This document shows, piece by piece, positions 29,221-51,220 of a DNA stretch of 64,000 nucleotides (positions are counted from its first letter, which is position 1; each line of letters begins with the position of its first letter). The DNA is taken from the IMG/VR virus record IMGVR_UViG_3300019703_000001, positions 21,079 to 85,078 of that record; one strand, written 5' to 3'. The position numbers were made by a program, and so were the translations under genes. The stretch comes from a virus (lineage: Duplodnaviria > Caudoviricetes). The notes under the pieces are model-generated. The model worked only from the letters and a program-made list of their open reading frames with translations. It searched no databases and was not told the DNA's origin.

Positions 29221-29380
29221 TCCCTTCTAAGTGCCCGGCTAAACCGGGTATTTAAAAGGGATTAACCCTTTATGCCACGGCAGACCTTTGGCTCACGTGG
29301 TAACATCAAACAGATATAGCAGGGCGGTGAACTTCTTTGCTAGTTCTTCGCCGCCCTGCGATTTTTTCAGGAGGTTAATT

Positions 29381-29665
29381 ATGCAAAATGCACATATACA
29401 AAATTTGACCCGTGAAGAAAAGATCGAAAAAGCCGCAAAAAGAGCAAGATTGGTTTTGAACAAACACCATAACGGCAAAATAACAGGCATGGATTGTGTC
29501 ATTGTGGAAACCCGAATAAATGGAAGAAAGCCCTTTTTCCATATGCGCTTTTTTAGGCCAAATAACTACAGACTAAAAATATGGGACAAAAACCTATATG
29601 AATGTGAAAGTCAAAATTTGTTCAGATTAGAAGATTATGAAGAAAAAAATATTGACAAAAGATAA
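29381..29665 (+). CDS. Hypothetical 94-aa protein behind a structured leader
   Basis: AGGAGG RBS and ATG at 29381. The track start (29288) lies within the hairpin-rich leader. Confidence 0.7.
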   Translation: MQNAHIQNLTREEKIEKAAKRARLVLNKHHNGKITGMDCVIVETRINGRKPFFHMRFFRPNNYRLKIWDKNLYECESQNLFRLEDYEEKNIDKR

Positions 29666-29771
29666 GATTGAAACAACTATGTCTTATGTTTTTGCATAAT
29701 TTAACCTCCTTTAAAATTTAAGTTTCATTACAAAAAAGGGAGGCAGGTTATAGGTTCCTGTCTCCCTTTTT
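29652..29771 (+). ncRNA. Candidate antisense sRNA 1 (promoter, anti-RBS seed, terminator)
   Basis: TTGACA-17-AACTAT at 29652-29680; 29690-29710 is complementary to 29369-29388; hairpin terminator at 29733-29771. Confidence 0.55.
29733..29771. terminator. Bidirectional terminator
   Basis: AAAAAGGGAGGCAGG-9-CCTGTCTCCCTTTTT. Confidence 0.85.
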
Positions 29772-29774
29772 GCT

Positions 29775-31766
29775 TTAAAAAGCAATTTGCGTACTGCCTT
29801 CTTTTAACCATTTTCTGAGCTTCTTTGTGTTGGTCTGTTTTATTGCCCCCAAACCTTTCCAACCTTTTTGATAATTTGCCAAATATGCCGCCCTCGCTTC
29901 TTCAATATCTTTAAATCCAAGCATTATTTTATGCTCACCAAATAGTCCCGAAACAGGATTATTCTGATTTACTACAAAGGCAAGACTTCCGTTTGTGTCA
30001 CCTATAAAACAGTCAATAGGATCAAAATCAGCCCCTTCGGTCCCGGTAATATATCCGTAATGATGTTTCATTCTGGTAATCCACTTTTTACCGTTTTCAT
30101 CAAATCCGAACCTTAAAGACCCTTTCGGGTTTTCTATCCTTATATCAAGACCCTTGAAGACAATTTTACCCTTTTTATAATTGCCTGACTCTTTTTGGGC
30201 TTCGGTCGGTTCCGTATTGACTTTTATTTTATCAAGCTGTGTTTTTAAATCTTTTTCAGGATTAAAGGCTTCTTCTATTGTCTTTAATATTTTAGAGTTT
30301 TTGAGGCTTGAATTGATTGCCGTTCCGCCTGCTTCGGCCCAAGGCTTTAAATTGTAGCCCATATCGTCGATTAAAATACTTTTGTCGTCAATAACATGCT
30401 TATATTTGTCATGACAGAATATTACATCATAAACTCCGAAATTGTCAAGAATCCAATTGATTTTATCCCGTCTACATTCGGGGATCTCATCCATAGGACT
30501 GGTTAAAAATACAATATTATAGTCATCCTTTAAAGCTTCGACAAGCTCCGCCCCTTTTTCAAGTACAGGGAGGTTATAAAAGAAATGTGGGACTGTTGAA
30601 ACAAATTGTTTTATAGTAAATGGGTCATCCTTGTCAGCACTTCGATCAAATGCCTGTTTATACCCTGCTCTAAAATCAGCGACAACCCCGTCCATGTCTA
30701 CATATACAATAGGTTTTGACGCAGCTTTCTGCATAGGGGTTTCAAGCATTATTTTATTATTTTTGACCGGGATAATAAAATCTTTGCCGCCTTGTCTATA
30801 TTCGACACCTTTTTCCAATTTAACTATTTTTGCACTATCCGGGACTATTGTATTTTTTACAACCTCTGAGTCTTCTGCGGACCTGACAAACCTACCTGTC
30901 GAAACATCCTGTCGGGGGTGAAAATAATTTTTTATAGCCTTTTGGTTTATTTCCCATGTAGCATTTAAGATCCTGTCTTTTGAAATTCGGTCTAAAATTT
31001 CTTTGAAAAGCGCAAACCCTTTTGGCTCTTCATGCTCTAAAATATTCATAAAGGCATTATTTATAAAAAGGCTTTTCATGTACCATTTGTAGATAGTACA
31101 GAAAAACTCTTCAACGTCTGACCGCTCCCACTCGTATTCATAAATAGCAGACATTTTTAGGTTTTCAAATATACCCTGAAAAGCCTCTTTTTCGTCCGCC
31201 CTGACACAAGTACGCCAAAATAAGTGGCCTATTTCATGGAATACATTGTCAAGGAATCTATCAGGGGAATACATTTCAATGTTAACTCCTGCCAATGCAG
31301 AAACAATTTTTTCTTTTTTCTCCTTTTCGGTTTGCTCCATTAAATTAAGAATTACAGAGTGAGGGGGTAAAAAAGGCTCTCCCACAAAAAGTTTTTGAAG
31401 TATGGGCATTTCAGCAGGGACCGCTTGCCATTTGTCCTGCCCCATTATAATAAATGGATCTCTTTGCTGCTGAACAGGTTCAGGGGATGTTTTGTTTTCT
31501 GATTCAACAATTATTGCATCAGTGGGTCTTTGCAATCTTACCTCATTTCCTTCATCACTTGAAAAAATATCATTTCCTTTATAACCGACGATAAAATGAC
31601 CGGGAATAAAAAAAGGTTTTTTGTCATTTATTAAGGCTTTTTTTAAATCTGAAACTTCATATTTTCCGAAGCTTATTTCAAAATTTTCAAGTTTTCCTTT
31701 GGTCTCTGATAAATTTTTGGAGTGGATTTTCTGGTCAGAAATTTTTTTTATTGTGGTCTTTTCCAT
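29775..31766 (-). CDS. Polyvalent protein: HExxH metallopeptidase-like + NT5C-type HAD nucleotidase + inorganic pyrophosphatase-like domain
   Basis: FHEIGHLFW; VYVDMDGVVADF...FLTSP...ILIDD; IENPKGS.R...HYGYI.GT.GAD.DPIDCF...EHKIMLGF. Confidence 0.82.
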   Translation of the reverse strand: MEKTTIKKISDQKIHSKNLSETKGKLENFEISFGKYEVSDLKKALINDKKPFFIPGHFIVGYKGNDIFSSDEGNEVRLQRPTDAIIVESENKTSPEPVQQQRDPFIIMGQDKWQAVPAEMPILQKLFVGEPFLPPHSVILNLMEQTEKEKKEKIVSALAGVNIEMYSPDRFLDNVFHEIGHLFWRTCVRADEKEAFQGIFENLKMSAIYEYEWERSDVEEFFCTIYKWYMKSLFINNAFMNILEHEEPKGFALFKEILDRISKDRILNATWEINQKAIKNYFHPRQDVSTGRFVRSAEDSEVVKNTIVPDSAKIVKLEKGVEYRQGGKDFIIPVKNNKIMLETPMQKAASKPIVYVDMDGVVADFRAGYKQAFDRSADKDDPFTIKQFVSTVPHFFYNLPVLEKGAELVEALKDDYNIVFLTSPMDEIPECRRDKINWILDNFGVYDVIFCHDKYKHVIDDKSILIDDMGYNLKPWAEAGGTAINSSLKNSKILKTIEEAFNPEKDLKTQLDKIKVNTEPTEAQKESGNYKKGKIVFKGLDIRIENPKGSLRFGFDENGKKWITRMKHHYGYITGTEGADFDPIDCFIGDTNGSLAFVVNQNNPVSGLFGEHKIMLGFKDIEEARAAYLANYQKGWKGLGAIKQTNTKKLRKWLKEGSTQIAF

Positions 31767-31870
31767 TTTTTTTTGCCTTTATAAGGGATATTTTTTTTAT
31801 TTTCGTAAAGATATTTTTTTTGTCAAGGATAAAAAAAATTGATTTTTTTTAAAAAAAAGTGAGAAAAGAC

Positions 31871-31899
31871 TTGACAAAGACAAGATAAGTTTGTATATT
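31871..31899 (+). promoter_or_regulatory. Sigma70-like promoter (cassette D)
   Basis: TTGACA-17-TATATT; spacer contains ACAAGATAAG. Confidence 0.85.
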
Positions 31900-31933
31900 G
31901 TATGTATAACTAAAACAAAACAGGAGACTGATT

Positions 31934-32209
31934 ATGAACGCAACAACAAAAGAAATAAGCTTAGAAGAAATCCAGAAAAGGTATAGTAACTGGGTAACTG
32001 TACAAAGTGCCGAAACAGTTCTTTTTTTAGAAAAGAACTCAACAAGACCCGAACATATGAGGGTTTTAAAGATAGAAATTACTGATGGACATATAACACA
32101 AATTTGGTATTCAGTAGAATCTAAAAGGGATGAAAATCCTCACTGGGTAGCCATGAAAGAATATAAAACAGATAAAGAAGCTGTTTTGGATTGTGTCAAT
32201 TGGTATTAA
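31934..32209 (+). CDS. Hypothetical protein
   Basis: CAGGAG RBS; first gene after the promoter. Confidence 0.75.
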   Translation: MNATTKEISLEEIQKRYSNWVTVQSAETVLFLEKNSTRPEHMRVLKIEITDGHITQIWYSVESKRDENPHWVAMKEYKTDKEAVLDCVNWY

Positions 32210-32288
32210 GATTTTAACCCCTACATTCGGCCCCTCCGGGGGTCTTGTGCAAGCGTTAAAATTAAAATTAAATTTCAGGAGAATCATT

Positions 32289-32435
32289 ATGACACTACAA
32301 CAAAAAGCAAACTTGCGACAACTGGAAATCAGGGAAAATGAAAGGTTACTCAGGGACCTTCCCTATCAAATCAGAATTCGGCCAAAAAGGAAAAAAATAA
32401 ACAGCCTTGAACGTCGAATCATAGCAGCAAAGTAA
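32289..32435 (+). CDS. Small basic hypothetical protein
   Basis: ATG 32289 behind CAGGAGAATCATT of repeat copy 3. Confidence 0.65.
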   Translation: MTLQQKANLRQLEIRENERLLRDLPYQIRIRPKRKKINSLERRIIAAK

Positions 32436-32442
32436 CACAATA

Positions 32443-32471
32443 GGCCCGGACCATAAAAAGTTCGGGCTTTA
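32443..32471. terminator. Bidirectional terminator
   Basis: GCCCGGAC-8-GTTCGGGC between convergent genes. Confidence 0.7.
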
Positions 32472-33248
32472 TTTTTTTGAAAAATCCTTCACAACTTCCT
32501 TTGCAAAATCCCCTATTATCTCACCTATCCGCTTGTTGACATATTTAAGAACCGAAGGGAAAACGGGTTGAGGTGATTTATTCGGATACTCCCACCCTTC
32601 ACTGTTTTCCGTAACAACTCTAAATATACCATACTGAGCTTGAAATTTTTTTGTATTATATTTAGTTAGCCCTGAAACATCCTCTCCGGTTGGCAGTGTT
32701 CCCGCTTTTAATCGGCCCCCTGATTTGACAATTTTATGCATCTCTGTGGTCATTTCTCTTTTACCAAAGTGGCGCGCCATTTTTCCAGAGTCTTCATTTC
32801 GAGGAGTGGCAACAGGGAAAGGAACTATTATATATTTGGTCCCGTCTTTTGAGGTTTTCGCTTTGTCACTTGCTAAAAGAGCGTCCCTGATAGACCATGT
32901 ATCAACACCCTTTTCAACCATCATTGCAAACATTTCAAAAGGCTTTTTACTTCCTTTAGAATCAATTTTAGATTCATCAAGGTAAACCTCCCCCTCAATT
33001 CCTGCATATTCGTAGGCTATAGCCTGAGCGTATTTACGGCCCCATCCCCCGGAGTTATGAGCATCTGTGCGCCATTTGTCAGCAGCTTCACGGGTAATTA
33101 GCCCTACAATGCTAGGCATAGACTTGTCAACCACTTCAACAAGTTCAGCGTAAAGGGCCTCAGAAGCAACCATCCCTGCGGCCTCCAGACCATCAAGAAT
33201 TGACTCTAAAATTGTTTCATCTTCTATATCAAAAATCATAATAATCAT
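32469..33248 (-). CDS. Putative neck/virion morphogenesis protein
   Basis: YIIVPF...FRVVTENS.GW.YP pattern, as in large-myophage neck proteins. Likely start at 33239. Confidence 0.6.
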   Translation of the reverse strand: MIIMIFDIEDETILESILDGLEAAGMVASEALYAELVEVVDKSMPSIVGLITREAADKWRTDAHNSGGWGRKYAQAIAYEYAGIEGEVYLDESKIDSKGSKKPFEMFAMMVEKGVDTWSIRDALLASDKAKTSKDGTKYIIVPFPVATPRNEDSGKMARHFGKREMTTEMHKIVKSGGRLKAGTLPTGEDVSGLTKYNTKKFQAQYGIFRVVTENSEGWEYPNKSPQPVFPSVLKYVNKRIGEIIGDFAKEVVKDFSKK

Positions 33249-33350
33249 ACTTTAAAAAAGTGAAAAAAATTTGTCAAATACAAAAAAAATGCAGAAAAGA
33301 CTTGACAAAGACAAGACAAGTTGTTATATTGTATGTATAACTAAAACAAA
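33248..33350. repeat. ~100 bp divergent-promoter repeat (second copy 36998-37100; related copies at 23190-23285 and 31815-31918)
   Basis: Near-identical copies with about 4 mismatches, all in the promoter spacer. Contains minus-strand TTGACA-17-TAAAGT and plus-strand TTGACA-17-TATATT (33302-33330; 37052-37080). Confidence 0.92.
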
Positions 33351-33362
33351 AGGAGAATGATT

Positions 33363-33614
33363 ATGAGCGCAAATAACACTGTTACTGAAATCAATAAAGC
33401 TCAAAGGGCGGGAGTAAAAGCTTTTAATAATGGCAAGGATCGTGCACCTGCTTTGAATCAAGCTTTTTTAAAAGAGGCTTGTTCTTCTAAAATTAATACA
33501 ATAGCATTATTAGATGCATATCTTCACGGATGGGACATTGCCAACTTGGCTAATGGAGAAACAAATCAAGACTTGCCAAGTGTTATTGAGCTTAAAAGAA
33601 TATTAAGTTTTTAA
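33363..33614 (+). CDS. Hypothetical protein
   Basis: AGGAGAATGATT RBS. Confidence 0.75.
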   Translation: MSANNTVTEINKAQRAGVKAFNNGKDRAPALNQAFLKEACSSKINTIALLDAYLHGWDIANLANGETNQDLPSVIELKRILSF

Positions 33615-33677
33615 CCCCTACACCCGGCCCCTCCGGGGGCCTCTAAATTACAAAAAAACAATTTCAGGAGAAATAAA

Positions 33678-34337
33678 ATGACACAAACAAATCAAGATAA
33701 TACTTACAAAAAATATTGCCCAAACGTCTTTGTTGCACAATGCCCCGAAAAACACGAAAAGGGTGACTTGATTATCCTTAAAACCAAATATGGAAAAGAG
33801 AATGAGTGTGAAGTACATAACTTAGTAGCTGAAAAGAATGGCTTTTATTACTATTCTATCACCCGAACCGATGGTTTTAATAGTCAGGAGAGAGCAAAAA
33901 GAAGGGCTGAACGACTAAACGGTTGGGCTGATTCTGCTGACAAAAGAAGTGCCGAATGGATGGAAAAGAGTCAAGAAGGAAAAGACTTTTTATCCCTTGC
34001 TGAACCTATTAAAGTCGGTCATCATAGCGAAAAAAGACACCGGGCTTTAATTGATCGCAATTGGAACAGGATGGGCAATGCTGTAAAAGAACAGGATAAG
34101 GCGGAAGCCTACAGGGACCGGATGGAATATTGGGAAAGCATGGCAAAAAAGATTGACTTATCAATGCCTGAAAGTCTGGAATTTTTCCAAATTCAGCTTG
34201 AAGAAGCTATCGAATACCACAAGGGATTAAAAGACGGCAGCATTAAACGTGAACACTCTTACTCCCTTACTTATGCAAAAAAAAGAGTAAACGAACTCAA
34301 GAAAAAATGTAAAACAGCTGAGATTCTATGGGCGTAA
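33678..34337 (+). CDS. DUF3560-like protein
   Basis: RAKRRAERL..WA.SA, EPIKVGHHSEKRHR and M..AV...KAE.Y..R motifs. Confidence 0.85.
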   Translation: MTQTNQDNTYKKYCPNVFVAQCPEKHEKGDLIILKTKYGKENECEVHNLVAEKNGFYYYSITRTDGFNSQERAKRRAERLNGWADSADKRSAEWMEKSQEGKDFLSLAEPIKVGHHSEKRHRALIDRNWNRMGNAVKEQDKAEAYRDRMEYWESMAKKIDLSMPESLEFFQIQLEEAIEYHKGLKDGSIKREHSYSLTYAKKRVNELKKKCKTAEILWA

Positions 34338-34343
34338 TCAATT

Positions 34344-34363
34344 AGCCCCTTCGGGGGCTTTTA
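34344..34363 (+). terminator. Intrinsic terminator
   Basis: AGCCCC-TTCG-GGGGCT-TTT. Confidence 0.75.
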
Positions 34364-34389
34364 CTTAAAATAAAATAAAAGGACACAAA

Positions 34390-34644
34390 ATGAACAAAAT
34401 ATCACAAACAACATTAAAAGAAGTCGTAACCGAACTTGAAAAATCTTTTGAGAAATGGCCTTTCAGAGAAAATATTTTCAAACAATTGGCCGTATTGACA
34501 GAAGAAGCCGGAGAATTATCACAAGCCATTTTACAGTATCAGGATGAGGGCCTCGCCCCCGAACACGCAAGATTTGAGGCTATTCAAACAGCTGCAATGG
34601 CTTTAAAAATGATAATGTATATTGATAAAAAAGGACTGGAATAA
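34390..34644 (+). CDS. MazG-like NTP pyrophosphohydrolase domain protein
   Basis: LTEEAGELSQAIL...EAIQTAAMAL. Confidence 0.7.
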   Translation: MNKISQTTLKEVVTELEKSFEKWPFRENIFKQLAVLTEEAGELSQAILQYQDEGLAPEHARFEAIQTAAMALKMIMYIDKKGLE

Positions 34645-34645
34645 A

Positions 34646-34888
34646 ATGGAACCCAATAAAGAAGCAGTAAAACAGATAGTACAACAAAGATTATTGACTG
34701 AAATGAAGTTTAATACACCGTTAGAATTTTTACTAAATGTCCAAACCGCTGTAAGAATTCACGGTGAAATAATATTTCAACAAAATGAACTTCTTTGGTC
34801 TTGTCAGTATTTACAAAGACTGTCAAAAAAGTATCACTATTTAAGTATAAATAAAATACCAAAAACTAATAAAATTCGTTTTTGGTAA
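34646..34888 (+). CDS. Hypothetical protein
   Basis: ATG 34646 behind AAGGA. Confidence 0.6.
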   Translation: MEPNKEAVKQIVQQRLLTEMKFNTPLEFLLNVQTAVRIHGEIIFQQNELLWSCQYLQRLSKKYHYLSINKIPKTNKIRFW

Positions 34889-34909
34889 TAAAATAAAAGG
34901 AGAATAATT

Positions 34910-35314
34910 ATGGTAATACCAAAAGAAGGGACTTATAAGGTTGTACCGGTGTTTTATGCTTTTCAAGACGGTCTTAGAGGTAGGGGGTTAATCGATTCAA
35001 CCATTTTGATCCCATTAAAAGATTTTGAAAGGTATATAAAAGCAGGTGATTTGTGGCTTGTCGTAAAAGATGAACTTGATTTTTTCTTAAATCTGCCTAT
35101 TATGACAAGAAATTACAAAGATTTTGATCTTAAGGATGACATGACCGATATGTTTAAAAAGCTAATTGAAATATCAGGTATTGAGTTTGGAGAAGACGCC
35201 GGGGGATGGGATGAGCTTTTTGAGGCATTGAATGGAAAGATTTTTGAATTGATTGTGACCTATAAAGAGATAGGGACATTTATTGAAGTTGAATATGATA
35301 TTAACAAAATTTAA
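34910..35314 (+). CDS. Hypothetical protein
   Basis: AAGGAGAATAATT-ATG. Confidence 0.75.
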   Translation: MVIPKEGTYKVVPVFYAFQDGLRGRGLIDSTILIPLKDFERYIKAGDLWLVVKDELDFFLNLPIMTRNYKDFDLKDDMTDMFKKLIEISGIEFGEDAGGWDELFEALNGKIFELIVTYKEIGTFIEVEYDINKI

Positions 35315-35331
35315 ACAGAGGGGGTTAGGTT

Positions 35332-35565
35332 ATGGCAACAAAAACAGATGAAAAGGGACACGCCGCTTGCACTTTTTGCAGGGGATTCCTTGAATATTTC
35401 GACCGTATAGAGTCAGGTAAAAAATATTATTATTGTTTTCACAATTGTTCAGGATCAGGATGCGGCGGTTTTTCTTTTTCGATAAAACACGCCGATGAAA
35501 ATGTTCTACACAAACGCATTAAAGTAGATTGGGACAAGATGCATACTGAATACTTAAAATCTTAA
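35332..35565 (+). CDS. Cys-rich (zinc-ribbon/Lar-like) small protein
   Basis: CTFC ... C..C....C. Confidence 0.6.
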   Translation: MATKTDEKGHAACTFCRGFLEYFDRIESGKKYYYCFHNCSGSGCGGFSFSIKHADENVLHKRIKVDWDKMHTEYLKS

Positions 35566-36992
35566 ACCCGCTTAGCATTTCCAAAAATAGCCTTATAATC
35601 AGTGCTGTTTTTGTCAACAGGGATAGGAAGTTGTGGATTGTTTAACCATTCTTCCTTTTTCTGTTTATATTGCTGAGGCTCCACTGCTTCATAAATATTG
35701 TTATTATATCTCACAAGGCCCGACTCCAAATAAACCGGTTTACGGTCCTCGACTTCCTGCGGTGATTTAAAGCTATAATCAACCTGCTGAGGGATGTATT
35801 TTTCTTTTTTCTGCCTTTCTTCAACCCGGTCAGTTTTTGGATTATACACCTGAGTTTCTAAATTTATGGGGGATAGTGTGGCGACATTGTAGGGATGTGC
35901 CGGAGTACACACCCGCCATTCGTGAACATTTTTTGTTTCCTTAAATCCTATATTATTCTTGCCGGGCCATACGGCTATATCGGTGTTGGGATCTTTTATC
36001 CCCATGCTTTTCAGACTGTCCCTTGTTGTGTCCGTAACTATTTCAGCCGGGACTAACCGAACCAAAGATCCCTGATGAGCCAAGCACCATTTACACGAAC
36101 CGCCTGTAAATACAAAATACTGAGCTCTTGAGGGATCTTTCAGGCTTTCCATAGCCTCATCGATATAACCAGATAATAAACCGGCCTCATAAACACTTGC
36201 TGTTTCAGTTGTGGATATTCTATACCAATTTTTCCGTAATGCCTCAGAGGTATATTTATTGACTAAATTTTGATTCTTTTGAACTTCCCAGTATAAATCA
36301 CTCGCTATTTGAACACTTGTTTTGTTGTTATCAATGCCGGTTTGGATCTGCTGCCTTATAGCTTCTTTAATCTCATTATTTGTTTTAGTAACCTCTGTGG
36401 CTATGTTTGAAAATGAAGTATTTAAAGCTCTTTTTTCTGCGGTCTTGAAGTCATACTGTTTATATACCTGACTGAGAGACTCGGGCATTTTGCCGCCGTA
36501 TTGATCGAACTCCACTTGATACAATGATTTGTTCTTGTAGGGCTTCTTTTCCCGTCTGTAATCAGTCGTCTCTTTGCCTAAAAAGAACCCCTTGACCGCC
36601 ATGTCTTCTGTAATTTTTTCAGTGTTTTTCTTCCAATAATCGTCAATTGTTTTATTGAATTTATCCCACTGCTTAGGGGTTAATGGTTCACCTTTATTAT
36701 ATAGTTTCTTTTCAATTCTAAACTTTGGAATTTTATAATTAAATACTTTTTTAAACTTATCAAAGACGCTTGAAAAAAAGTCTGCTTTCTCTAATTTTCC
36801 GGGTTTATTTTTAGCCAGCCGGTAAGCTTCTTTTGAGGTCAGCCCTAAGTTTATACCTATGCCCACATATATCTCGTTAATGAGTGCGAACATGTAGGCG
36901 TCCCAAAACTCGTTTAATTCCCTGATATATTTGACGTCCTGAACTTCGCCTTTTTGGTGTTTTTCTTCAAATTCTTTGTCTATTGTAGCCAT
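35562..36992 (-). CDS. Head morphogenesis protein (Mu gpF / SPP1 gp7-like)
   Basis: RI..TETAS, C..C, and PAHPYN motifs. Confidence 0.75.
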   Translation of the reverse strand: MATIDKEFEEKHQKGEVQDVKYIRELNEFWDAYMFALINEIYVGIGINLGLTSKEAYRLAKNKPGKLEKADFFSSVFDKFKKVFNYKIPKFRIEKKLYNKGEPLTPKQWDKFNKTIDDYWKKNTEKITEDMAVKGFFLGKETTDYRREKKPYKNKSLYQVEFDQYGGKMPESLSQVYKQYDFKTAEKRALNTSFSNIATEVTKTNNEIKEAIRQQIQTGIDNNKTSVQIASDLYWEVQKNQNLVNKYTSEALRKNWYRISTTETASVYEAGLLSGYIDEAMESLKDPSRAQYFVFTGGSCKWCLAHQGSLVRLVPAEIVTDTTRDSLKSMGIKDPNTDIAVWPGKNNIGFKETKNVHEWRVCTPAHPYNVATLSPINLETQVYNPKTDRVEERQKKEKYIPQQVDYSFKSPQEVEDRKPVYLESGLVRYNNNIYEAVEPQQYKQKKEEWLNNPQLPIPVDKNSTDYKAIFGNAKRV

Positions 36993-37116
36993 GAGATTAC
37001 TTTAAAAAAGTGAAAAAAATTTGTCAAATACAAAAAAAATGCAGAAAAGACTTGACAAAGATAAGATAAGTTTGTATATTGTATGTATAACTAAAACAAA
37101 TTAAAGGAGACTTGCT

Positions 37117-37320
37117 ATGGCTTTACTAACAGTAAAATGCGATTCTTGTGAAACAGGAACCATTGTTTTAAGAGCGAAAGATATTTCTTTCAAAGAAGAA
37201 GAACAAACATACATTTCTACCTATGAATGCCTATGTGATACCTGTGGGAAATCAAAAGAGGATTATGTACTAAAACAAAAAATGCAAAAAATACAAGTTA
37301 AAAAGGAGAATAACCCATGA
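37117..37320 (+). CDS. Zinc-ribbon small protein
   Basis: CDSC ... CDTC; AAGGAG RBS. Confidence 0.7.
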   Translation: MALLTVKCDSCETGTIVLRAKDISFKEEEQTYISTYECLCDTCGKSKEDYVLKQKMQKIQVKKENNP

Positions 37321-37589
37321 GCAATAATAATTTAATAATTGAAATTGACGGAAAAGAAAAACGTGTAAACCCTATGTTGCAAAGGGTTATAACAGAACCG
37401 GTCCCACTAAATAGCGGAGACTACAACTCTATCGCTGTTAAATTTGATTATTTTGGCAATCCGGAAATTTTGAACGGCTGCGATATAGATAAAAATATAT
37501 TAAAATTAAGTGAAGAAAATAAACTCAAAGTCGCTGAGTTTATGACCCAAAGATGGTCTGAGTATGCAAATAAATTAAAAGGAGAGTGA
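37317..37589 (+). CDS. Hypothetical protein
   Basis: AAGGAG RBS; coupled to the previous gene. Confidence 0.65.
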   Translation: MSNNNLIIEIDGKEKRVNPMLQRVITEPVPLNSGDYNSIAVKFDYFGNPEILNGCDIDKNILKLSEENKLKVAEFMTQRWSEYANKLKGE

Positions 37590-37593
37590 TATT

Positions 37594-37914
37594 ATGGACA
37601 ATTTCGCAACTGCAACAGTAGAGGGATTTGTGGCCTTCTATGATGAGGAAGTAAGAACCACAAAAACAGATAAGAAGATTTTTAATTTCACCCTGATCGT
37701 AGAACACCGACCGGGTGAAGGAATGCCGCCCCAAACGTCTTACATTGATATTGAGGCATGGGAAAAGCTGGCTGAAATAGCCTATGAGAGGATCAGAGAA
37801 AAAATGCCCCTTATGGTTATAGGCCGATTAACACAGGAAAGGTGGGAGGATAAACATGGCGAACCCTGCCAAAGGATTAAAGTAATTGCCCATGACATAA
37901 GACTCAAAAAATAA
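37594..37914 (+). CDS. ssb: Single-stranded DNA-binding protein (no acidic tail)
   Basis: YIDIEAWEKLAE, V.GRL.QERWEDK.G...RIKVIA. Confidence 0.88.
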   Translation: MDNFATATVEGFVAFYDEEVRTTKTDKKIFNFTLIVEHRPGEGMPPQTSYIDIEAWEKLAEIAYERIREKMPLMVIGRLTQERWEDKHGEPCQRIKVIAHDIRLKK

Positions 37915-37920
37915 TCAAAA

Positions 37921-37950
37921 AAAAGCCCTTCTTAACCGGAGGGCTTTTTA
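37921..37950 (+). terminator. Intrinsic terminator
   Basis: AAAAGCCC...GGGCTTTTT. Confidence 0.75.
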
Positions 37951-38009
37951 AATTGTACTTGAAAAAAATCTCTTGTTAGTGCATATTTACATTAACAGGA
38001 GTAAATAAA

Positions 38010-38339
38010 ATGAATATCTTTTCAAACATAGTTATTCAAGGATTTGCTGCAAACACTCCACAAGAACAAAATCATAATAATAAAAAATATTACACATTCT
38101 CTTTAGTCTTACGCATTCAATCTGTTTATAACAATCAATCTTATATAGATGTTGAAACATGGGACAATGATATAGTTAACGACATTCAAATAGGGTCTAA
38201 GCTATGTATAACAGGCAATGTGTCAATTGACAGCATGAAGGGACAAAGCGGGATCGAATATCAGAGAATAAAAATTGTAGCTCATTCAATAAGAAAGGCC
38301 CTCCATGTCAAAGAGGACCTTTTTACTATTCCGGTTTAA
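38010..38339 (+). CDS. ssb: Second, divergent SSB-like OB-fold protein
   Basis: N..VIQG, YIDVETW, G....ITG......RIKIVA. Confidence 0.7.
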   Translation: MNIFSNIVIQGFAANTPQEQNHNNKKYYTFSLVLRIQSVYNNQSYIDVETWDNDIVNDIQIGSKLCITGNVSIDSMKGQSGIEYQRIKIVAHSIRKALHVKEDLFTIPV

Positions 38340-38345
38340 GTCATT

Positions 38346-38804: not shown

Positions 38805-38835
38805 TAGTACCTCCGTTTAATTGTTTTTGTTGTTA

Positions 38836-38952: not shown

Positions 38953-38978
38953 TAAACATCTCCATTTAATTGTTTTAA

Positions 38979-39152: not shown

Positions 39153-39235
39153 TTACTATCCTCCATTTGGTGTGTATTATTTTGTTCTTAACAAATACAA
39201 GATAAGATTAAAGGTGGTTTATGTCAAGAAAAAAA

Positions 39236-41269: not shown

Positions 41270-41337
41270 GTCTCATCTCTCTTATCTCTTATTTTTTTTG
41301 TGTTTCTATATGTATGTGATATATTTGCTTCTAAAGT

Positions 41338-42458: not shown

Positions 42459-42461
42459 TTT

Positions 42462-43553: not shown

Positions 43554-43554
43554 T

Positions 43555-44091: not shown

Positions 44092-44116
44092 TTGATTTCT
44101 CCTTTGTTTTATGAGT

Positions 44117-44332
44117 CTATCTTAGTTTTTGTTTTTTTTGATAATTTTCATTAATAAAATTACATTTCACAATTTTTAAATTATAATCTATTCCTTCAAA
44201 ATAATCACACTCCGTGCACCATGCAGAACCTACACGTGCCTTCATATATTCTTTTTTAGTAAAGAAGGCAATATCTTTTAAATTTTTACACGTTTTTTTT
44301 AAAAAGAAAAATTTTTTTATTTTTATTAACAT
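44117..44332 (-). CDS. Small Cys-containing hypothetical protein
   Basis: AAGGAG RBS; C.ECDYF...C. Confidence 0.55.
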   Translation of the reverse strand: MLIKIKKFFFLKKTCKNLKDIAFFTKKEYMKARVGSAWCTECDYFEGIDYNLKIVKCNFINENYQKKQKLR

Positions 44333-44349
44333 CTGTAGTCTCCTTTGTT

Positions 44350-45960
44350 TTATATCAACATCACAGCCTTTTCCAAGGCTTCATCTATTAAACTATCTGT
44401 TTCGTCCTCAGAGAACCCTCCAAAGCCCTCTTCTTCTGATTCCCCGCCTTCTCCCATGCCCTGCATCATTTGTACATTTTGAGCATAAACAGGATCAAGA
44501 ATTATATCCCCTTTTTCTCCCAGAGAAGGGAGGTCCATTTCTTTTCTGATTTCATTAACTGTCTTGACCGACTTAACGTTTTTGGTTCTTAAGTCAGCTT
44601 CAAAGGATTTGTCTTCTGTTTCAACACCGTTAAATTTGAATTTAAAATCCTTTGCGAAGTCATAGCCGGATAGAGCAAGCCATTTATTAACTATATCAGC
44701 AAGGCCGCCGAGCAAATCTTTAAGGCCCCGGCTTTTTGAGAATAACTGCTTTGCGTCCTGGTTATCATTAAGCACATTTTGCGCCTGATTAAGCCTCAAT
44801 CCGAGTTCAGCAGGGTCCGCGCCCATACAGGAGCAAACTAACGCCCCTGAGAATTGCATAAATTCATTATATTCCATATCCCTATTACTAGGAAACATAT
44901 TTAATACTTTAGCGTCTCCATTCAATAAGGGGATATTCCATTGACCGTCTGTTCCCTCAAAGTTTGCGGCCCACTCATCCTGCATATCTTCAAGCTGCTC
45001 CGGTGTATAACTATTATCTTTGCCTAAAGAGATCCCTACTTTGGGAATAGAGCCTTTTGAAAGCCCCGTGAGGTTATATGTGAGAGAGTTTATAAAGGCA
45101 GTTACGGCAAGATTAGCCTTTTCTACCACAGAAAGGCCCTGTTTGTAGAATCTTACATCATTTAACTCATTTGAAAGGTCATATATTAGATCTTTGTCGT
45201 CGAATGCTGCAACTACCCCGCCGCCGCCCATATTATAAAGCAGCTCCTGAACAAAACGTATTTCTTCCGGGGGAGGCGTGGACTCTACACGCAATTTGGA
45301 TATAACATCTTCTATTTTGCTATACCCCCTTGACCCGCCTACTTGAGAAGGGGAGCCATAAAAACCGCCGGGAAGTACTGGGAAAATAGTCGCACCGTCC
45401 AAAACCCACAGTGCAATCGATTTGCCACTTTGGTCTGTTTCATTTTCCCACGTTATTTTATCTATTAATAGTCGGTCTCTGGTGTATTTTGTGGCTATGC
45501 TTTTAAAATTATCAGGGGTTTCAATTCCGACGTAGTCTTCACGGTGTCCGCATTCAAGGAAGTTCTCTAAAAATTCTTTTTGCTTTTCCTTATCACCGCT
45601 TATTTGCTCTTTTTCGTCTTTTAAAACAAATTCCCAACCGGGAATATCCTTATCATGTGATATTTTTACGAATTCCATCATCTGCTGTATTCGTAAAGTG
45701 ATTACACCCCCGACAAGGGGATTTCGGGGTTCAATCAATCTTAATAAATTATCGGGAATTTTTCCAAGGGGGTATACAATATTATTCGGATTCGTTCTGT
45801 TTACCGAATCATATTGCATACCCCTATTGACAGACTTGAAGACTTTTTTGTCTAAATGCTTAAGGGTTTGTTTCGCTTCTTGTACTGCTGCGGCGTAATC
45901 GAGGGCGTGTTTTTCTTGCCTTGTAGGATTACTTCGCTGCTTTTCCTTTTTCTTTGCCAT
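44350..45960 (-). CDS. Portal protein, SPO1/Twort-like
   Basis: RDRLLIDKIT.E, DGATI, EQLEDMQ.EW...G..GQW.IPLL, DMEY..F...C...GADPAELG and KTVNEIR motifs. Confidence 0.92.
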   Translation of the reverse strand: MAKKKEKQRSNPTRQEKHALDYAAAVQEAKQTLKHLDKKVFKSVNRGMQYDSVNRTNPNNIVYPLGKIPDNLLRLIEPRNPLVGGVITLRIQQMMEFVKISHDKDIPGWEFVLKDEKEQISGDKEKQKEFLENFLECGHREDYVGIETPDNFKSIATKYTRDRLLIDKITWENETDQSGKSIALWVLDGATIFPVLPGGFYGSPSQVGGSRGYSKIEDVISKLRVESTPPPEEIRFVQELLYNMGGGGVVAAFDDKDLIYDLSNELNDVRFYKQGLSVVEKANLAVTAFINSLTYNLTGLSKGSIPKVGISLGKDNSYTPEQLEDMQDEWAANFEGTDGQWNIPLLNGDAKVLNMFPSNRDMEYNEFMQFSGALVCSCMGADPAELGLRLNQAQNVLNDNQDAKQLFSKSRGLKDLLGGLADIVNKWLALSGYDFAKDFKFKFNGVETEDKSFEADLRTKNVKSVKTVNEIRKEMDLPSLGEKGDIILDPVYAQNVQMMQGMGEGGESEEEGFGGFSEDETDSLIDEALEKAVMLI

Positions 45961-46198
45961 TCATTTCAGCCTTTTTGTCTTTTTTGGCTGCCGTTAATGG
46001 CGTTGATTTTATACCGGGTTCCCCGTTTTCAAGAGTCTCTATTTCGACTATATCGTCAAGACCCCCGTTGTGGAGTGCCTTAGCGATTACACTCCAAGTA
46101 AAAGCTACAATATTCATAGTGGCTTTTGTTACTTCAAATTTCGGATTTTTTTCTAAACGTTCCGAAACTGTTTCGTTGAAAGCTTCTCTGAAATTCAT
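45929..46198 (-). CDS. Hypothetical protein
   Basis: AAGGA RBS; overlaps the portal start. Confidence 0.55.
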   Translation of the reverse strand: MNFREAFNETVSERLEKNPKFEVTKATMNIVAFTWSVIAKALHNGGLDDIVEIETLENGEPGIKSTPLTAAKKDKKAEMNGKEKGKAAK

Positions 46199-46201
46199 AT
46201 T

Positions 46202-46627
46202 TTATCCTTTTAATTTACTCATTATTTTGCCGTTTTTGAACTCAGCCATATGCTCATCATTTGTCCTTTTTTTAATATACTCAAACGCTAAAGAATTTGT
46301 CAACTTTATTATGCCTGTTTTATTAAAAAAAGAATCAAAAAAAGGAACTGAGCCGAAGTCCTTAATATATTCTAATAATTTATTACCCTTTATTGGAAAT
46401 ACGTTTGGGTTTTTTTCCATTGGCATTTTAGCAAGCTCTTTTTTTTGAGCGAGTAAGGGCAGCGTTAAAATTTTATTGTATTCCCTTTGGTCCCTTTCAG
46501 AGAGCTGCTGCCTGCCGTCTTCCGGGAGCTCAGATATTCCGGTCCCTCCGCTGTATGCCAAATAATATACACTGTTCAAGTATATAGTATAGTTACCTAT
46601 TTTTTCACATGGATTGTGTTGTGACAT
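46202..46627 (-). CDS. Hypothetical protein
   Basis: GGGG RBS. Confidence 0.6.
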   Translation of the reverse strand: MSQHNPCEKIGNYTIYLNSVYYLAYSGGTGISELPEDGRQQLSERDQREYNKILTLPLLAQKKELAKMPMEKNPNVFPIKGNKLLEYIKDFGSVPFFDSFFNKTGIIKLTNSLAFEYIKKRTNDEHMAEFKNGKIMSKLKG

Positions 46628-46667
46628 TATTCCCCCTTATAATTTTTATTCTTGTTTTGCGGTTTTA

Positions 46668-47132
46668 TCATTGTACAGTCTCAGTATTAAAGCGCTCAAG
46701 AAAATCTTTTTGTCGTTCGTCTTTTGTTTCTTCTATTTTTTCGTTAATTAGTTCACACAAATTTTCTTTGAACTGTAAGAAGTCATCCAAAAGATTATTT
46801 TTCATTAAAAAATGTGTCATTTCAGAAATGGAACCTAAAATATTATATATTTCAAGAACGTTGAACTCTTCAACTTGATTTTCTATTATTTTACATATAA
46901 CAGCAAGGTCCGCCTCTTCTGTCGAAGTGTCAGTTAATTTAAAATTTTCCAGCCTGCTTTTAATATTCTTGCTGAAAGAATTATAGAGATAGAAATACAG
47001 CAGGAATAAGATTATATAACATGCGGTTGTCAAAATGAAAAAAGCAGGGTGTAATTTATCCTTAAAAATAAGCATGGCTATAAATGAAACTATGTGAAAA
47101 GCTACAAATAAAATAGTGTATAATGATTTCAT
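46668..47132 (-). CDS. Membrane protein (two N-terminal helices)
   Basis: Hydrophobic N-terminus; CAGGAG RBS. Confidence 0.65.
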   Translation of the reverse strand: MKSLYTILFVAFHIVSFIAMLIFKDKLHPAFFILTTACYIILFLLYFYLYNSFSKNIKSRLENFKLTDTSTEEADLAVICKIIENQVEEFNVLEIYNILGSISEMTHFLMKNNLLDDFLQFKENLCELINEKIEETKDERQKDFLERFNTETVQ

Positions 47133-47135
47133 GCT

Positions 47136-47402
47136 TTATCTTCTCCTGTCTTTGTATTCTACACTGAAAGTATTAAATTTATTAAGGTTCAAACTTATTT
47201 TAGCAAATTTATTAATTTTAATTTGGTCTTCTGGATAACAATAAAATGTAATAACAATACGGGTTTTGTCGCAATCCGACGGTCTAACCCTATACGACAA
47301 GAAAATATTATTTTTTTTTGAAAATAGTGTAATTCTTTTTTGTACAATTGACAGAGCCATTTGATCAAATTTTTTGAATTTATGCAAACTTATGTCTATC
47401 AT
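47136..47402 (-). CDS. Hypothetical protein
   Basis: ORF in a co-oriented cluster. Confidence 0.55.
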   Translation of the reverse strand: MIDISLHKFKKFDQMALSIVQKRITLFSKKNNIFLSYRVRPSDCDKTRIVITFYCYPEDQIKINKFAKISLNLNKFNTFSVEYKDRRR

Positions 47403-47678
47403 TTAACTTTCTTCCTGTATTTTACTACACCATTCTTTAGCATCTTCATACCATTCATTGGATTCAATGCCTGTTGTGCCATACTGACTTAAAAGCTCAT
47501 AAGCCTTATTAACTTTTTCTTCAAGCCATTTGCGATATTCTTTATTATATTTAATTAGATCATGCGTATAGAGGGCATAAGCTTTATCAAATAGCTTAAA
47601 GTCGAAAAAGTCCTTAGAATGTGGCAAGATGGGCTCTTTTAGCCCTGCTTCTTTTTCAAATTGTTTTTTATATTCCAT
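47403..47678 (-). CDS. Hypothetical protein, paralog of 54506-54769
   Basis: ATG 47678 behind AAGGAG; MEYKKQFEKEAGLKEP...EY.KWLE. Confidence 0.65.
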   Translation of the reverse strand: MEYKKQFEKEAGLKEPILPHSKDFFDFKLFDKAYALYTHDLIKYNKEYRKWLEEKVNKAYELLSQYGTTGIESNEWYEDAKEWCSKIQEES

Positions 47679-47811
47679 TACACACTCCTTTTTAAAATAA
47701 GAATTGCCTCCCCGCCTAGTGAGAAAAGCAGGGAGGCTCTTAACCCGCCACACTACATGTAACTACAGTACATGCCCTTGATTTAGCGCGCTGTTATATT
47801 TTAAGAAAAAA

Positions 47812-48012
47812 TTATAAGCCTTCTTCAAAATTTTTTATCATTGTATCACCTTCTTCTTTAGTTATTTTATGATAAGTGACACGCTTTCCGGTTTCCTCTT
47901 CTTTAACAAAATTACCATTTTTCAATTCATGTATTTTGTGCATTCGGGAAACGGTTTCTCCGAATTCACGACTTATTGCTACTCCAAAATAACTTTTTAT
48001 AATCTCTGACAT
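47812..48012 (-). CDS. Hypothetical protein
   Basis: GGAGG RBS; flanked by 15-bp direct repeats. Confidence 0.65.
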   Translation of the reverse strand: MSEIIKSYFGVAISREFGETVSRMHKIHELKNGNFVKEEETGKRVTYHKITKEEGDTMIKNFEEGL

Positions 48013-48247
48013 ATTGAGCCTCCATTTTGACTTATATTTTAAGAAACAAGGCAGTCTGACCGTCGCAAACCCCCTACAGTTTTTAATTTTAATCAGACTC
48101 CCATTGTTTCAATAAAAACAATAATACTTTTATCTTGTCATATGTCAACAATTTTTTAATATTTTTTTCAAATCTGTATAAAAATCAAAATTGTAAAACA
48201 TACGGCAAGAATAATAGCAAAAATAAACTCTACATCTAATTTAATCT

Positions 48248-48760
48248 TCATTGTCTCATCCCTTCAAAGGGTTTTCCCTTCGGTCTTTCATAAAGTTGTT
48301 TTTTACTGTCATCATTGGCAAAGATTTGATCGGGATCTAAAACACTGATTGTATATTCAGTATCAGCCGCTACACAAAAACGGTATAAATAATCTTTTGG
48401 AGGTCTTACCATGACAATAAATTCTTTGTTTCTAAATTCAAAAACGTGTTTGTCATATTTATAAAGCTTGACAACCTGATCTCCGAAGTCTTTTAAAAAA
48501 TCTTCTTTCCAGTGTTCGGGAATTAATGATAAATAAAAAAACAAGTCCCGATTTATCGTCTTTTGTCCCATGATTTCATCATGTATAAATTGCATTGCTT
48601 CTTTAAGAAAATCTTTAAATTCTCTAACCGATTTAAAAAAATCAATCTGTTTGCCTCGCTCTTTGCCGCTTTTATAAAAATACACAATAGTATTATTTTC
48701 AGTGTTCATAAACCCAAAATACTTAACGCCTTCAATTTCTGTTTCAAAAAATTTTATCAT
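48248..48760 (-). CDS. Hypothetical protein
   Basis: GGAGG RBS. Confidence 0.7.
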   Translation of the reverse strand: MIKFFETEIEGVKYFGFMNTENNTIVYFYKSGKERGKQIDFFKSVREFKDFLKEAMQFIHDEIMGQKTINRDLFFYLSLIPEHWKEDFLKDFGDQVVKLYKYDKHVFEFRNKEFIVMVRPPKDYLYRFCVAADTEYTISVLDPDQIFANDDSKKQLYERPKGKPFEGMRQ

Positions 48761-48800
48761 TATTAAACCTCCCCTATATCTTTAATCTTTTGTAGCATAT

Positions 48801-49256
48801 TTATTTTTCTCCCGGCTCACCTACTTGCCTCTCTTTAAACATACACCATATTTCTTTATCCTTTGGGAAATGATTACATTTGTAAGGACACTTGTTGACA
48901 CAATACTGAGATCCAATTGAAACTTTTTTTACAATTCCATGTTGTCCGGTCCTCCCAATAAAAGGACAATCGGGAGTACTGATATTAGTTCCATCTAAAA
49001 CAGTGTAATAAAGCAGCAAAGGATATGCTTTGCTGTCTTCTTTATCCTCAAAAAAAGTCTCTTCTGTAAGCTGATCAAGTGAGTCAGTTAGTTCTGCCGC
49101 CTCTATTTTATCATGCTCAATATGATTTATTTCATTTTTTGAAGATATTATTTCATCAGCTAAACAACCAAAAAGAGCAGGTGGTATTGATTGTTTTCCA
49201 CCAACTTCATCTTTAGAAAAATTCTCTATTATTTTTAACAGTTTTTCTTTGTTCAT
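48801..49256 (-). CDS. Hypothetical protein with C-terminal Cys cluster
   Basis: GAGG RBS; C..KCPYKC...C. Confidence 0.65.
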   Translation of the reverse strand: MNKEKLLKIIENFSKDEVGGKQSIPPALFGCLADEIISSKNEINHIEHDKIEAAELTDSLDQLTEETFFEDKEDSKAYPLLLYYTVLDGTNISTPDCPFIGRTGQHGIVKKVSIGSQYCVNKCPYKCNHFPKDKEIWCMFKERQVGEPGEK

Positions 49257-49507
49257 AATTTATTCAACCTCACTTGGTATAATTTCAATAAATTTATTAT
49301 TTTCAAATAAAGGCTCACATTCGCAATGATTTACACTTTCATTTGTACAACCCCCTGAACATCCATATTCTTTTTCTAAGTCTTCTAAAAAATATTCATC
49401 ATGATATTTAATTATTTCCAAAAGAGAATACTCTCTTGTTATAATTCCATTATCTAATTTTAATTTAAACCTTATATCTTTATTCATAATTTATTCAACC
49501 TCACTTG
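49252..49507. repeat. 25-bp direct repeat flanking gene 49260-49487
   Basis: TTCATAATTTATTCAACCTCACTTG is identical at 49252-49276 and 49483-49507. Confidence 0.9.
49260..49487 (-). CDS. Small YopX-N-like/Cys-containing protein
   Basis: M.KDIRFK start resembles YopX; ends in SEVE like its neighbour. Confidence 0.55.
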   Translation of the reverse strand: MNKDIRFKLKLDNGIITREYSLLEIIKYHDEYFLEDLEKEYGCSGGCTNESVNHCECEPLFENNKFIEIIPSEVE

Positions 49508-49901
49508 ACATGAGTTCAGGGTTTTCAAATATATTACCTATAATTTCATACGTTAATAAAAAATCATGTAAAGACGGGTTCCATGGCCCTCCTGTGTTAA
49601 CTCGAAAACAACATTTATCTTTATGCCATTCAACAACACCGCGAGTGTTCAAATTTTCATTATCTTTGTGAAATATGCTTACTATATCGCCCTCATAAAT
49701 ATCTTTTCCTGTTGAGTCTTTGAGGCCGGTATATTGCATTATTTTTAAAAATTTATCACAATAATCATCCAACCCCATTAAAGAATCAATAAAATACAAA
49801 TGAAGTTGTCTTAAACGTGTTTTAGGTGTTTTAGAATTTTTAGAATGGTACAATATTTTTGCTTGTGTATCCCGTATCCTGAATTTAATTTCTCTTGTCA
49901 T
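49491..49901 (-). CDS. YopX family protein
   Basis: MTREIKFR...MQYTGLKD..GK.IYEGDIV...EIIGNIFENPEL. Confidence 0.9.
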   Translation of the reverse strand: MTREIKFRIRDTQAKILYHSKNSKTPKTRLRQLHLYFIDSLMGLDDYCDKFLKIMQYTGLKDSTGKDIYEGDIVSIFHKDNENLNTRGVVEWHKDKCCFRVNTGGPWNPSLHDFLLTYEIIGNIFENPELMSSEVE

Positions 49902-50188
49902 TTTTTTATTCTCCCTATGGTTCCAGTTTTTATTATTGGAATATAAAGACTTCTGAGTAAACTAAAGGTTATAAGCCATCTTTGCAACTTCATTTTAAAT
50001 GAAAAATTAAACAAGGTTAAACTGATAACTATTCCCGGACATGCATTATTATTTACACAAAAATCAAACAAATGAAAAGCAGAGCTACAACAAATTTTAA
50101 TTTGAATCATATTAGGACTATCTAATATTTGAACCTTTATTAATGTAAAATAATACATAAAATTATAAAATCTTTGTTTTAAGTTCAT
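49898..50188 (-). CDS. Hypothetical protein
   Basis: AGGAGAATAATT-ATG. Confidence 0.65.
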   Translation of the reverse strand: MNLKQRFYNFMYYFTLIKVQILDSPNMIQIKICCSSAFHLFDFCVNNNACPGIVISLTLFNFSFKMKLQRWLITFSLLRSLYIPIIKTGTIGRIKK

Positions 50189-50202
50189 AATTATTCTCCT
50201 GA

Positions 50203-50598
50203 TTAGTTTTTGTTAATATCTATTTCACATAAAACATCAATCTTCATGTTTTCGACCTTACAATTGTCCGCTTTGCCGCCTCTAAAATCGGGGTGATCTC
50301 TGAATTCTTTTTTTAAGATCCACTGAATTTCTTTTGTATTTCCGCAATAGGGACAAGTCTGATTGTTGTAACACCCCTCATATGCCCGGCCACAAACAAG
50401 ACAAATTAAGGTAAAGGGATTTCCACCGTCTGCTTTCTCAAGCTCATAAATATATGTATTCACGTTACTCATGTGTTCTTTCATAACTTCCCTTAGAGTT
50501 TCCAAGTTTTCAAAAATTTCTTTTTCAGTCATTTCACCAGAAAAAGCTCTATTAAACAACTCTGCTTTTTCCGCTCGTTTTAAATCCTGATCATCCAC
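50203..50598 (-). CDS. Zinc-ribbon protein (GTG start)
   Basis: GTG 50598 behind AAGGAGAATAATT; CLVC ... CPYC. Confidence 0.65.
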   Translation of the reverse strand: MDDQDLKRAEKAELFNRAFSGEMTEKEIFENLETLREVMKEHMSNVNTYIYELEKADGGNPFTLICLVCGRAYEGCYNNQTCPYCGNTKEIQWILKKEFRDHPDFRGGKADNCKVENMKIDVLCEIDINKN

Positions 50599-50600
50599 AA

Positions 50601-50894
50601 TTATTCTCCTTTGCTGAAACGCAATGTCCCATTGAACCAATTGCCTTTAATCGAATATCTTTTTTTATTTTTGAAAACAAGTTTCAATTCAAACCAATGA
50701 TCATTTGTAAATGATTCATAACTCTCCATACCTATATCATATAATACTTTAAGTAATTCGTCAACTCTTTGATAATGAAGGTTTATGAATTCCCTATGTC
50801 CATCTAAAACCCTCCACAACTTAGGGCTATTGTTTATTGTCAATCTGTTCAATTTGACACTCCTTTCTCTATATACTTTTAAATAATATTGCAT
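50601..50894 (-). CDS. Hypothetical protein (true start probably TTG near 50853)
   Basis: AAGGAG precedes the in-frame TTG. Confidence 0.55.
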   Translation of the reverse strand: MQYYLKVYRERSVKLNRLTINNSPKLWRVLDGHREFINLHYQRVDELLKVLYDIGMESYESFTNDHWFELKLVFKNKKRYSIKGNWFNGTLRFSKGE

Positions 50895-50899
50895 CCTAC

Positions 50900-51048
50900 A
50901 AAAAAATCAGAGGGAGCGACAAACAATAAAAAGGTTGGCCTGTCATGACCGCCGCCCCCTCAAAACTATGATAGGAGTTAAACTATGAAAATGAAAGTTA
51001 AATCAGTAAGTCTTTAAACAATATAATAACTTGTCTTATTTGTGTCAA
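50900..51048 (-). ncRNA. Candidate anti-RBS RNA 2 or structured leader
   Basis: TTGACA-17-TATATT (51048-51020); antisense of AGGAGTTAAACTATGAAAATG; 11-bp stem with long loop, then a T-run. Confidence 0.45.
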
Positions 51049-51077
51049 CACAAAAAATAAAAAAAACGAAAAAAATA

Positions 51078-51220
51078 CAAAAAAACCCGGATAAGGGCTT
51101 ATCCGGGTTTTTCCTTTCAGGATTAGAGTGTGTGAAAATTGTATACTGGGTGTAGCTATATAATTATAGGAGAATAATTATTGTCACTTATAATATAACA
51201 AAATTAAATCAAATCGTCAA
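51078..51220 (-). ncRNA. Candidate antisense sRNA 3 (~105 nt)
   Basis: TTGACG-17-TATATT with extended TG; no start codon before the terminator hairpin; 5' hairpin ATAATTAT-TCTCCT-ATAATTAT; perfect terminator at 51081-51112. Confidence 0.7.
51081..51112. terminator. Intrinsic terminator
   Basis: AAAAACCCGGATAAG / CTTATCCGGGTTTTT perfect inverted repeat. Confidence 0.9.

Follow-up and report, generated by a model that had tools for sequence, protein, structure and literature searches.

Three ORF-less units of an uncultured phage as candidate antisense RNAs against the ribosome-binding sites of early cassette genes

The switch from early to late gene expression in phages is usually ascribed to proteins, namely sigma factors, repressors and antiterminators. 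Small RNAs (sRNAs) directed against Shine-Dalgarno (SD) sequences and antisense control in phages are known kinds of regulation as well: sar of phage P22 is a short promoter-terminator RNA complementary to a translation start, and c4 forms a cloverleaf and is directed at dedicated target boxes within the operon it belongs to. The c4 RNA of phages P1 and P7 acts in trans and blocks a ribosome-binding site (RBS) on phage mRNA by means of loop-displayed seeds (PMC12197685). RoxS pairs with SD sequences through single-stranded C-rich seeds and blocks initiation on several mRNAs (PMC5419742), and art200 of IS200 as well as IsoA are short promoter-terminator RNAs complementary to translation starts (PMC4513863; PMC6733600). 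In aapA mRNA, a far-downstream anti-SD sequence occludes the RBS of the same mRNA by a long-distance interaction (PMC6733600), and StxS is a short RNA produced when transcription ends early, before an operon is reached, and has gained an sRNA function (PMC7547250). In this study, we describe three small units, designated U1, U2 and U3, within a window of 64,000 nucleotides (nt) from an uncultured phage (Duplodnaviria; Caudoviricetes), which corresponds to positions 21,079 to 85,078 of the IMG/VR record IMGVR_UViG_3300019703_000001 and is part of an 85-kb phage contig (G000); all positions given below are those of the window.

U1 (29652-29771, plus strand), U2 (51048-50900, minus strand) and U3 (51220-51078, minus strand) are devoid of open reading frames (ORFs) and share one plan, as a preliminary description of the window had claimed: each is composed of a sigma70-type promoter, a mostly unpaired 5' segment complementary to an SD-spacer-start codon region, and a hairpin with a U-tract. 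The three are unrelated to one another in sequence, so that the "family" of that description is one of plan and not of homology. Judged from sequence, it is somewhat more probable than its opposite (roughly 0.55) that U1, U2 and U3 are antisense RNAs which act on the early cassette genes as a class and damp their translation.

With the sRNAs of the RsaE/RoxS and RNAIII type of Bacillota the units have in common an unpaired C-rich seed complementary to the SD sequence; RsaE and RoxS, however, belong to conserved families, are encoded by the host and contain several C-rich regions, whereas the units are phage-encoded, predicted to be aimed at phage genes, and equipped with a single seed that extends over spacer and start codon. 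From c4 they differ as three unrelated, dispersed RNAs that match the SD-spacer-start segment itself on many genes. While sar, art200 and IsoA lie antisense to a genuine target gene that they overlap, the strand opposite the units holds 5-13 codons of unconserved length and the predicted targets lie elsewhere. Like the anti-SD segments of hok and aapA, U1 is predicted to occlude the RBS of a gene upstream of it, 29381, but the 94-aa product of this gene belongs to no known family and is not recognizable as a small membrane toxin; in addition, a promoter-like element is associated with the anti-SD segment itself. The position of U2 ahead of an operon fits StxS and the lambda 6S RNA, from which U2 differs by a promoter of the early cassette class and an anti-RBS seed; a Q-like antiterminator was not identified. 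An own promoter, an intrinsic terminator and the absence of an ORF, by which trans-acting sRNAs are recognized, are present in the units, the promoter of U1 being the weaker one. None of the Rfam covariance models, including those of RsaE/RoxS and c4, reached the gathering score with U1, U2 or U3, and a tRNA scan and blastn searches against GenBank phages yielded neither a family nor a homolog. An arrangement of three unrelated minimal RNAs acting on a shared early-gene RBS signature is not described in the literature searched, which covered few subscription papers.

U3 and U2 follow each other in tandem, with no intervening gene, and both have near-consensus promoters (TTGAC-17-TATATT). The U3 promoter (51192..51220, minus strand) contains an extended -10 element and precedes an RNA of about 108 nt (51078..51186), in which the anti-SD sequence lies in the loop of an 8-bp AU stem (51181-51160); its perfect terminator (51114-51079) also terminates the terL/methylase transcript. 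The U2 promoter (51020..51048, minus strand) belongs to the early class, is 90% like the promoter at 23249, and precedes an RNA of about 115 nt (50900..51013) with an anti-start codon at 50987-50985, an anti-SD sequence at 50977-50973 and a GC-rich hairpin followed by a U-tract. The U1 promoter (29652..29680, plus strand) overlaps the last codons of gene 29381-29665 and combines a perfect -35 element and a 17-nt spacer with a poor -10 element (AACTAT). This combination of -35, spacer and -10 has one further copy, at 62815 upstream of gene 62875, compared with about 0.05 copies expected by chance, and for this reason probably represents a real promoter class. The U1 RNA of about 85 nt (29686..29771, plus strand) contains an anti-start codon at 29695-29697, an anti-SD sequence at 29705-29710 and a bidirectional terminator at 29733-29771. 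The 5-bp motif AYAAG had been reported at all three promoters; it occurs in tandem within the U2 spacer and just 5' of the U3 -35 element (51233), whereas U1 has one forward copy, situated in the spacer, and one inverted copy but no tandem.

The fold z-scores are -3.9 for U1, -1.9 for U2 and -4.5 for U3, with a terminator-like hairpin and U-tract in each. The anti-SD sequence, of which each unit has one, is predicted to be unpaired in all three. Its display in the loop of a stable AU-rich stem, which had been proposed for U1 and U3, is predicted for U3 only (unpaired probability 0.99-1.0 in the loop and 0.01-0.13 in the stem); the CCUCC of U1 is likewise predicted to be accessible (0.89-1.0), but its flanking stem is weak.

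Since the strand opposite each unit reads SD-ATG, the product could instead be an opposite-strand minigene or small toxin with the RNA serving as its cis-antisense antitoxin, as in aapA/IsoA, and the search pattern introduced below does retrieve aapA/IsoA-like Helicobacter loci with a 22-aa hydrophobic ORF. The opposite-strand ORFs of the units, however, comprise 6, 10 and 5 codons and are not hydrophobic, that of U2 lengthens to 13 codons in a strain relative, and those of an orthologous pair in two other phages measure 22 and 9 codons. A good opposite-strand promoter was looked for at the units and not found, and at U1 the bidirectional terminator would stand in the way. Because these ORFs are so short (5-13 codons) and their lengths unconserved, minigenes as the product are very unlikely.

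In the window, a leftward head module is interleaved with rightward small-gene cassettes (23324..38339, plus strand), whose promoters are duplicated TTGACA-17-TATATT elements with tandem AYAAG repeats; duplicate copies of promoter and RBS modules are found all over the genome. The U3 seed is an exact 14-nt complement of the RBS of gene 34910-35314 (34898..34911, plus strand), of gene 50188-49898 (50187..50200, minus strand) and of gene -12485 (-12473, outside the window), and 12-nt matches are present at 24249 and 50598. The RBS class read by U3 is borne by 8 of the 19 cassette genes, by 3 of 79 other small genes and by none of 47 virion/packaging genes. For U1, the best predicted trans target is the RBS region (35302..35348, plus strand) of gene 35332-35565, which encodes 77 aa, with -31.5 kcal/mol, about 4 standard deviations below the genome mean. 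A second U1 target is the RBS and start (29369..29388, plus strand) of gene 29381-29665, its immediate upstream neighbour, with about 20 bp, one bulge and -29.0 kcal/mol; the product of this gene gave no match in Pfam, PHROG or the Atlas, and its homologs are near-identical ones only. In flank shuffles with the anti-SD core kept fixed, the pairing of U1 was better than all 120 shuffles (p<0.01) and that of U3 better than about 99% (p ~0.01). With folding included, U1, U2 and U3 each bind the RBSs of cassette genes better than those of virion genes (Mann-Whitney p 3-5e-4), early and late classes being defined by gene position and promoter type and not by expression. That the targets are the phage's own early cassette genes, as proposed earlier, thus agrees with the best partners, which are small early or cassette genes and not virion genes, but does not extend to significant targets of U2.

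The units might also be generic mimics of the 16S rRNA tail aimed chiefly at host mRNAs, bringing about host shut-off, with the phage matches as a by-product. Their seeds are complementary to a consensus SD-spacer-ATG-AAA context, and those of U2 and of the units in two other phages (G003 and G005, see below) are not specific for their own genome. Among 10 phages, however, the own genome gave the best pairing for U1 and U3, though not for U2, in a comparison that used the genome without a 6.6-kb segment; the spacer class matched by U3 is moreover a peculiarity of this phage, and a generic mimic would also strike the strong SD sequences of the late phage genes. We therefore consider a host-directed role hardly probable. 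The 6.6-kb segment is present in an ENA assembly (L134:11127-17759, equivalent to window positions 64001-70633), where it is flanked by two similar genes; the phage genome appears to be circular with about 91.7 kb including this segment, and G000 is a collapsed assembly or a deletion variant lacking it. The top three partners of U2 (best value -25.8 kcal/mol) are neighbouring genes within the segment, a clustering that is suggestive only.

A further explanation is that the units act mainly in cis: U1 would be the 3' untranslated region of the 29381 mRNA locking its own RBS in the manner of hok/aapA, U2 an attenuated leader of genes 50852-48248, and U3 for the most part the region in which the terminase transcript terminates. 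U1 is predicted, in transcripts of 461-1046 nt, to fold back onto the SD sequence of its own mRNA with a probability of 0.9-1.0, and its weak -10 element fits a cis role. For genes 50852 to 48248, U2 is the one leader with a promoter that was detected, no further promoter having been found between 51048 and 48148, and U2 is probably also a leader of the downstream operon; the U3 terminator directly follows terL in the strain relative. On the other hand, the U1 promoter form recurs at 62815, and the operon that holds gene 35332, the best partner of U1, is a different one. U3, which stands next to U2 without a gene in between, is served by an extended -10 promoter of its own and lacks a target in cis. 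In the strain relative, U2 is unchanged but is followed by another gene. A predominantly cis-acting role is thus possible but rather unlikely.

If the units are class-directed antisense RNAs, as we prefer to assume, they would be independent small RNAs covering the part of a phage mRNA that the 30S initiation complex occupies. The CCUCCU sequence, resembling the 16S rRNA tail, would pair with the SD sequence and a CAU or AUAAU stretch with spacer and start codon; once these elements are occupied, the 30S subunit would be excluded, as by RoxS at SD sequences (PMC5419742) and by c4 on a phage RBS (PMC12197685). We infer that the units are transcribed, pair in vivo and repress, acting not on single partners but on the RBS class common to the rapidly swapped early cassette genes, by which early translation would be damped or shut off and the virion genes spared. 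U3 would nucleate via its exposed loop, after which the palindromic AU stem would be opened by strand exchange. With regard to timing, U3, being also the 3' end of the terminase transcript, could accumulate late, and with AYAAG outside its core promoter could remain active under repression of the early promoters, while U2, with AYAAG in the spacer, should rise with the early genes. U1 would silence gene 35332 in trans and gene 29381 either in trans or by fold-back, and U2, starting at an early-class promoter, would probably be a terminated leader capable of serving as an sRNA as well.

The conservation of the units can be followed in G001, a strain-level relative (87% identity of the major capsid protein). 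G001 keeps U3 and U2 at 97.7% directly behind terL, although it lacks the methylase gene before U3 and gene 50601-50852 after U2. Promoter and seed of U1 are unchanged, and four of five substitutions lie in the terminator stem, where all preserve pairing; they represent three pair-preserving stem changes, one of which, from A-U to G-C, alters both sides. The targets 35332, 34910 and 50188 are missing from the 53 kb of G001, and the genes in their place bear the same RBS class. The preliminary description had named the seeds in relatives as a check: conservation was found in G001, seed-target co-variation was not, and the target turnover would fit targeting at the class level.

Outside this pair of phages, the major capsid protein shares about 55-62% identity with its counterparts in a group of uncultured phages of 75-92 kb and no more than ~29% with those of cultured phages. 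Of nine distant relatives, three, namely G003, G004 and G005, each contain one unit of the plan described above, which measures 60-70 nt and has a seed predicted to be fully unpaired. Those of G003 and G005 are syntenic orthologs in phages with about 55% protein identity, and each folds into the same terminator; a search for further orthologs of this pair returned only these two plus unrelated matches. The G004 seed pairs with adjacent convergent early genes, and the G004 and G005 seeds perform better than shuffles on their own genes. A match in G007 was rejected as a unit because it faces a real opposite-strand gene, and candidates in G002 (30954) and G001 (4380) were excluded for lack of a -35 element or of an anti-start codon.

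Five of the 96 intergenic promoters from the 10 phages of this group carry an anti-SD sequence in the first 60 nt, and a terminator precedes any gene in all five compared with 11 of the other 91 (Fisher p 7e-5), a count in which U2 and U3, from which the pattern was discovered, are included, as is one case for which a 20-nt spacer was allowed post hoc; without U2 and U3 the ratio is 3/3 versus 11/91 (~0.003). In IMG/VR, a promoter/anti-ATG/anti-SD pattern gave 11 distinct matches, eight of which, including U2 of G001, have an opposite ORF of at most 26 aa and a downstream hairpin (-10.6 to -33.7 kcal/mol), whereas none of the four distinct matches to a scrambled-promoter control was of this kind, all four being real gene starts with weak folding (p ~0.03). 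Of 66 distinct matches in metagenomes, 37 have a short opposite ORF, 12 of them with a terminator, compared with 3 of the 23 matches with long ORFs. Units resembling U1 or U3 were also sought elsewhere with the exact seeds, without a match.

Two groups of loci retrieved by these searches deserve separate mention. Prophage-like loci, mostly of Clostridia (L104, L108, L124, L128, L131, L132, L166, L233), begin, like the units, with a promoter and an anti-RBS segment; behind these lies a conserved structured RNA that has no Rfam match, often stands upstream of tRNA genes or of apparent terminase-small-subunit or methylase genes, and is possibly an undescribed non-coding RNA family. In Helicobacter loci (L101, L109, L127, L129), an antisense promoter lies over a 22-aa hydrophobic ORF; they resemble aapA/IsoA type I toxin-antitoxin modules, and L109, the one scanned, gave no Rfam match.

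Several observations weigh against class-directed antisense control. The U3-matched RBS class has 11 copies in the phage genome as opposed to 0-1 in each of nine distant relatives, but these sites are partly duplicated modules and hence not independent, and in an A-rich genome any anti-SD sequence pairs with many RBSs. The targets of U2 are better than only about 89% of shuffles (p ~0.11, not significant), and those of the G003 unit are no better than shuffles. In G001, seeds remained invariant while the perfect targets were lost; intermediate relatives were searched for and none was found, and six of the nine distant relatives show no such unit. The wider search pattern is mixed and also retrieves cis leaders and type I antitoxins, and outside this phage group a clear nearby target is apparent for few units. 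Some of these points would equally suit neutral relics, that is, RBS modules that cassette shuffling left behind as stumps or in inverted copy and that came to lie between promoter and terminator by accident: duplicated promoter/RBS modules and fast cassette turnover would explain the match to the phage's own RBS class, and U2 has no significant target. Such an origin is nevertheless improbable, since a single genome holds three cases and three other phages show identical spacing, and in view of the ortholog pair at about 55% protein identity, stem changes that preserve pairing next to invariant seeds, and a scrambled-promoter control that retrieves real genes only.

As a tentative generalization, for which the odds are below even, phages may widely and convergently use minimal RNAs of the form promoter/anti-(SD + start codon)/terminator as translational switches that act on a whole class, the RBS spacer signature marking interchangeable early genes. 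If true, a matching RNA would switch off the whole class, and new cassette genes would gain control simply by bearing the signature. An RNA layer of this type would explain how dozens of fast-turnover accessory genes are controlled without gene-specific regulators. The layout can be found by a simple pattern and recurs in unrelated phages and prophages at places where gene callers and Rfam stay blank.

The tandem AYAAG repeat is present in 19 copies, nearly all within or next to sigma70 promoters (in the window at 23249, 28153, 28691, 31871, 33302, 37052, 48148, 51048, 52035, 62795 and 62815), and is likely an operator. AYAAG-related arms also occur within dyads that had been read as dif-like sites and may likewise be operators. 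An AYAAG-binding regulator was not identified, the product of 57477-57677 giving a weak HTH_17 match only, and no informative family was found for the candidate regulator 62875 or for the target proteins. The DNA methyltransferase gene (51248-52038), which is missing in G001, has a short AYAAG-containing stretch at both borders, suggesting cassette exchange at promoter modules. Conversely, G001 contains about 480 additional bases (L039:3865-4400) with tRNA-like fragments and no counterpart in the window, in which ARAGORN called no tRNA. The non-coding region 57740-58340 beside the primase gene, with a 79-nt inverted repeat, AT-rich tandem repeats and repeated motifs, is probably a replication origin. 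Finally, two GC-rich hairpins of similar plan (29320-29367 and 50961-50900), each followed by GA and a U-run, stand before genes without an own promoter and are possible read-through or processing signals.

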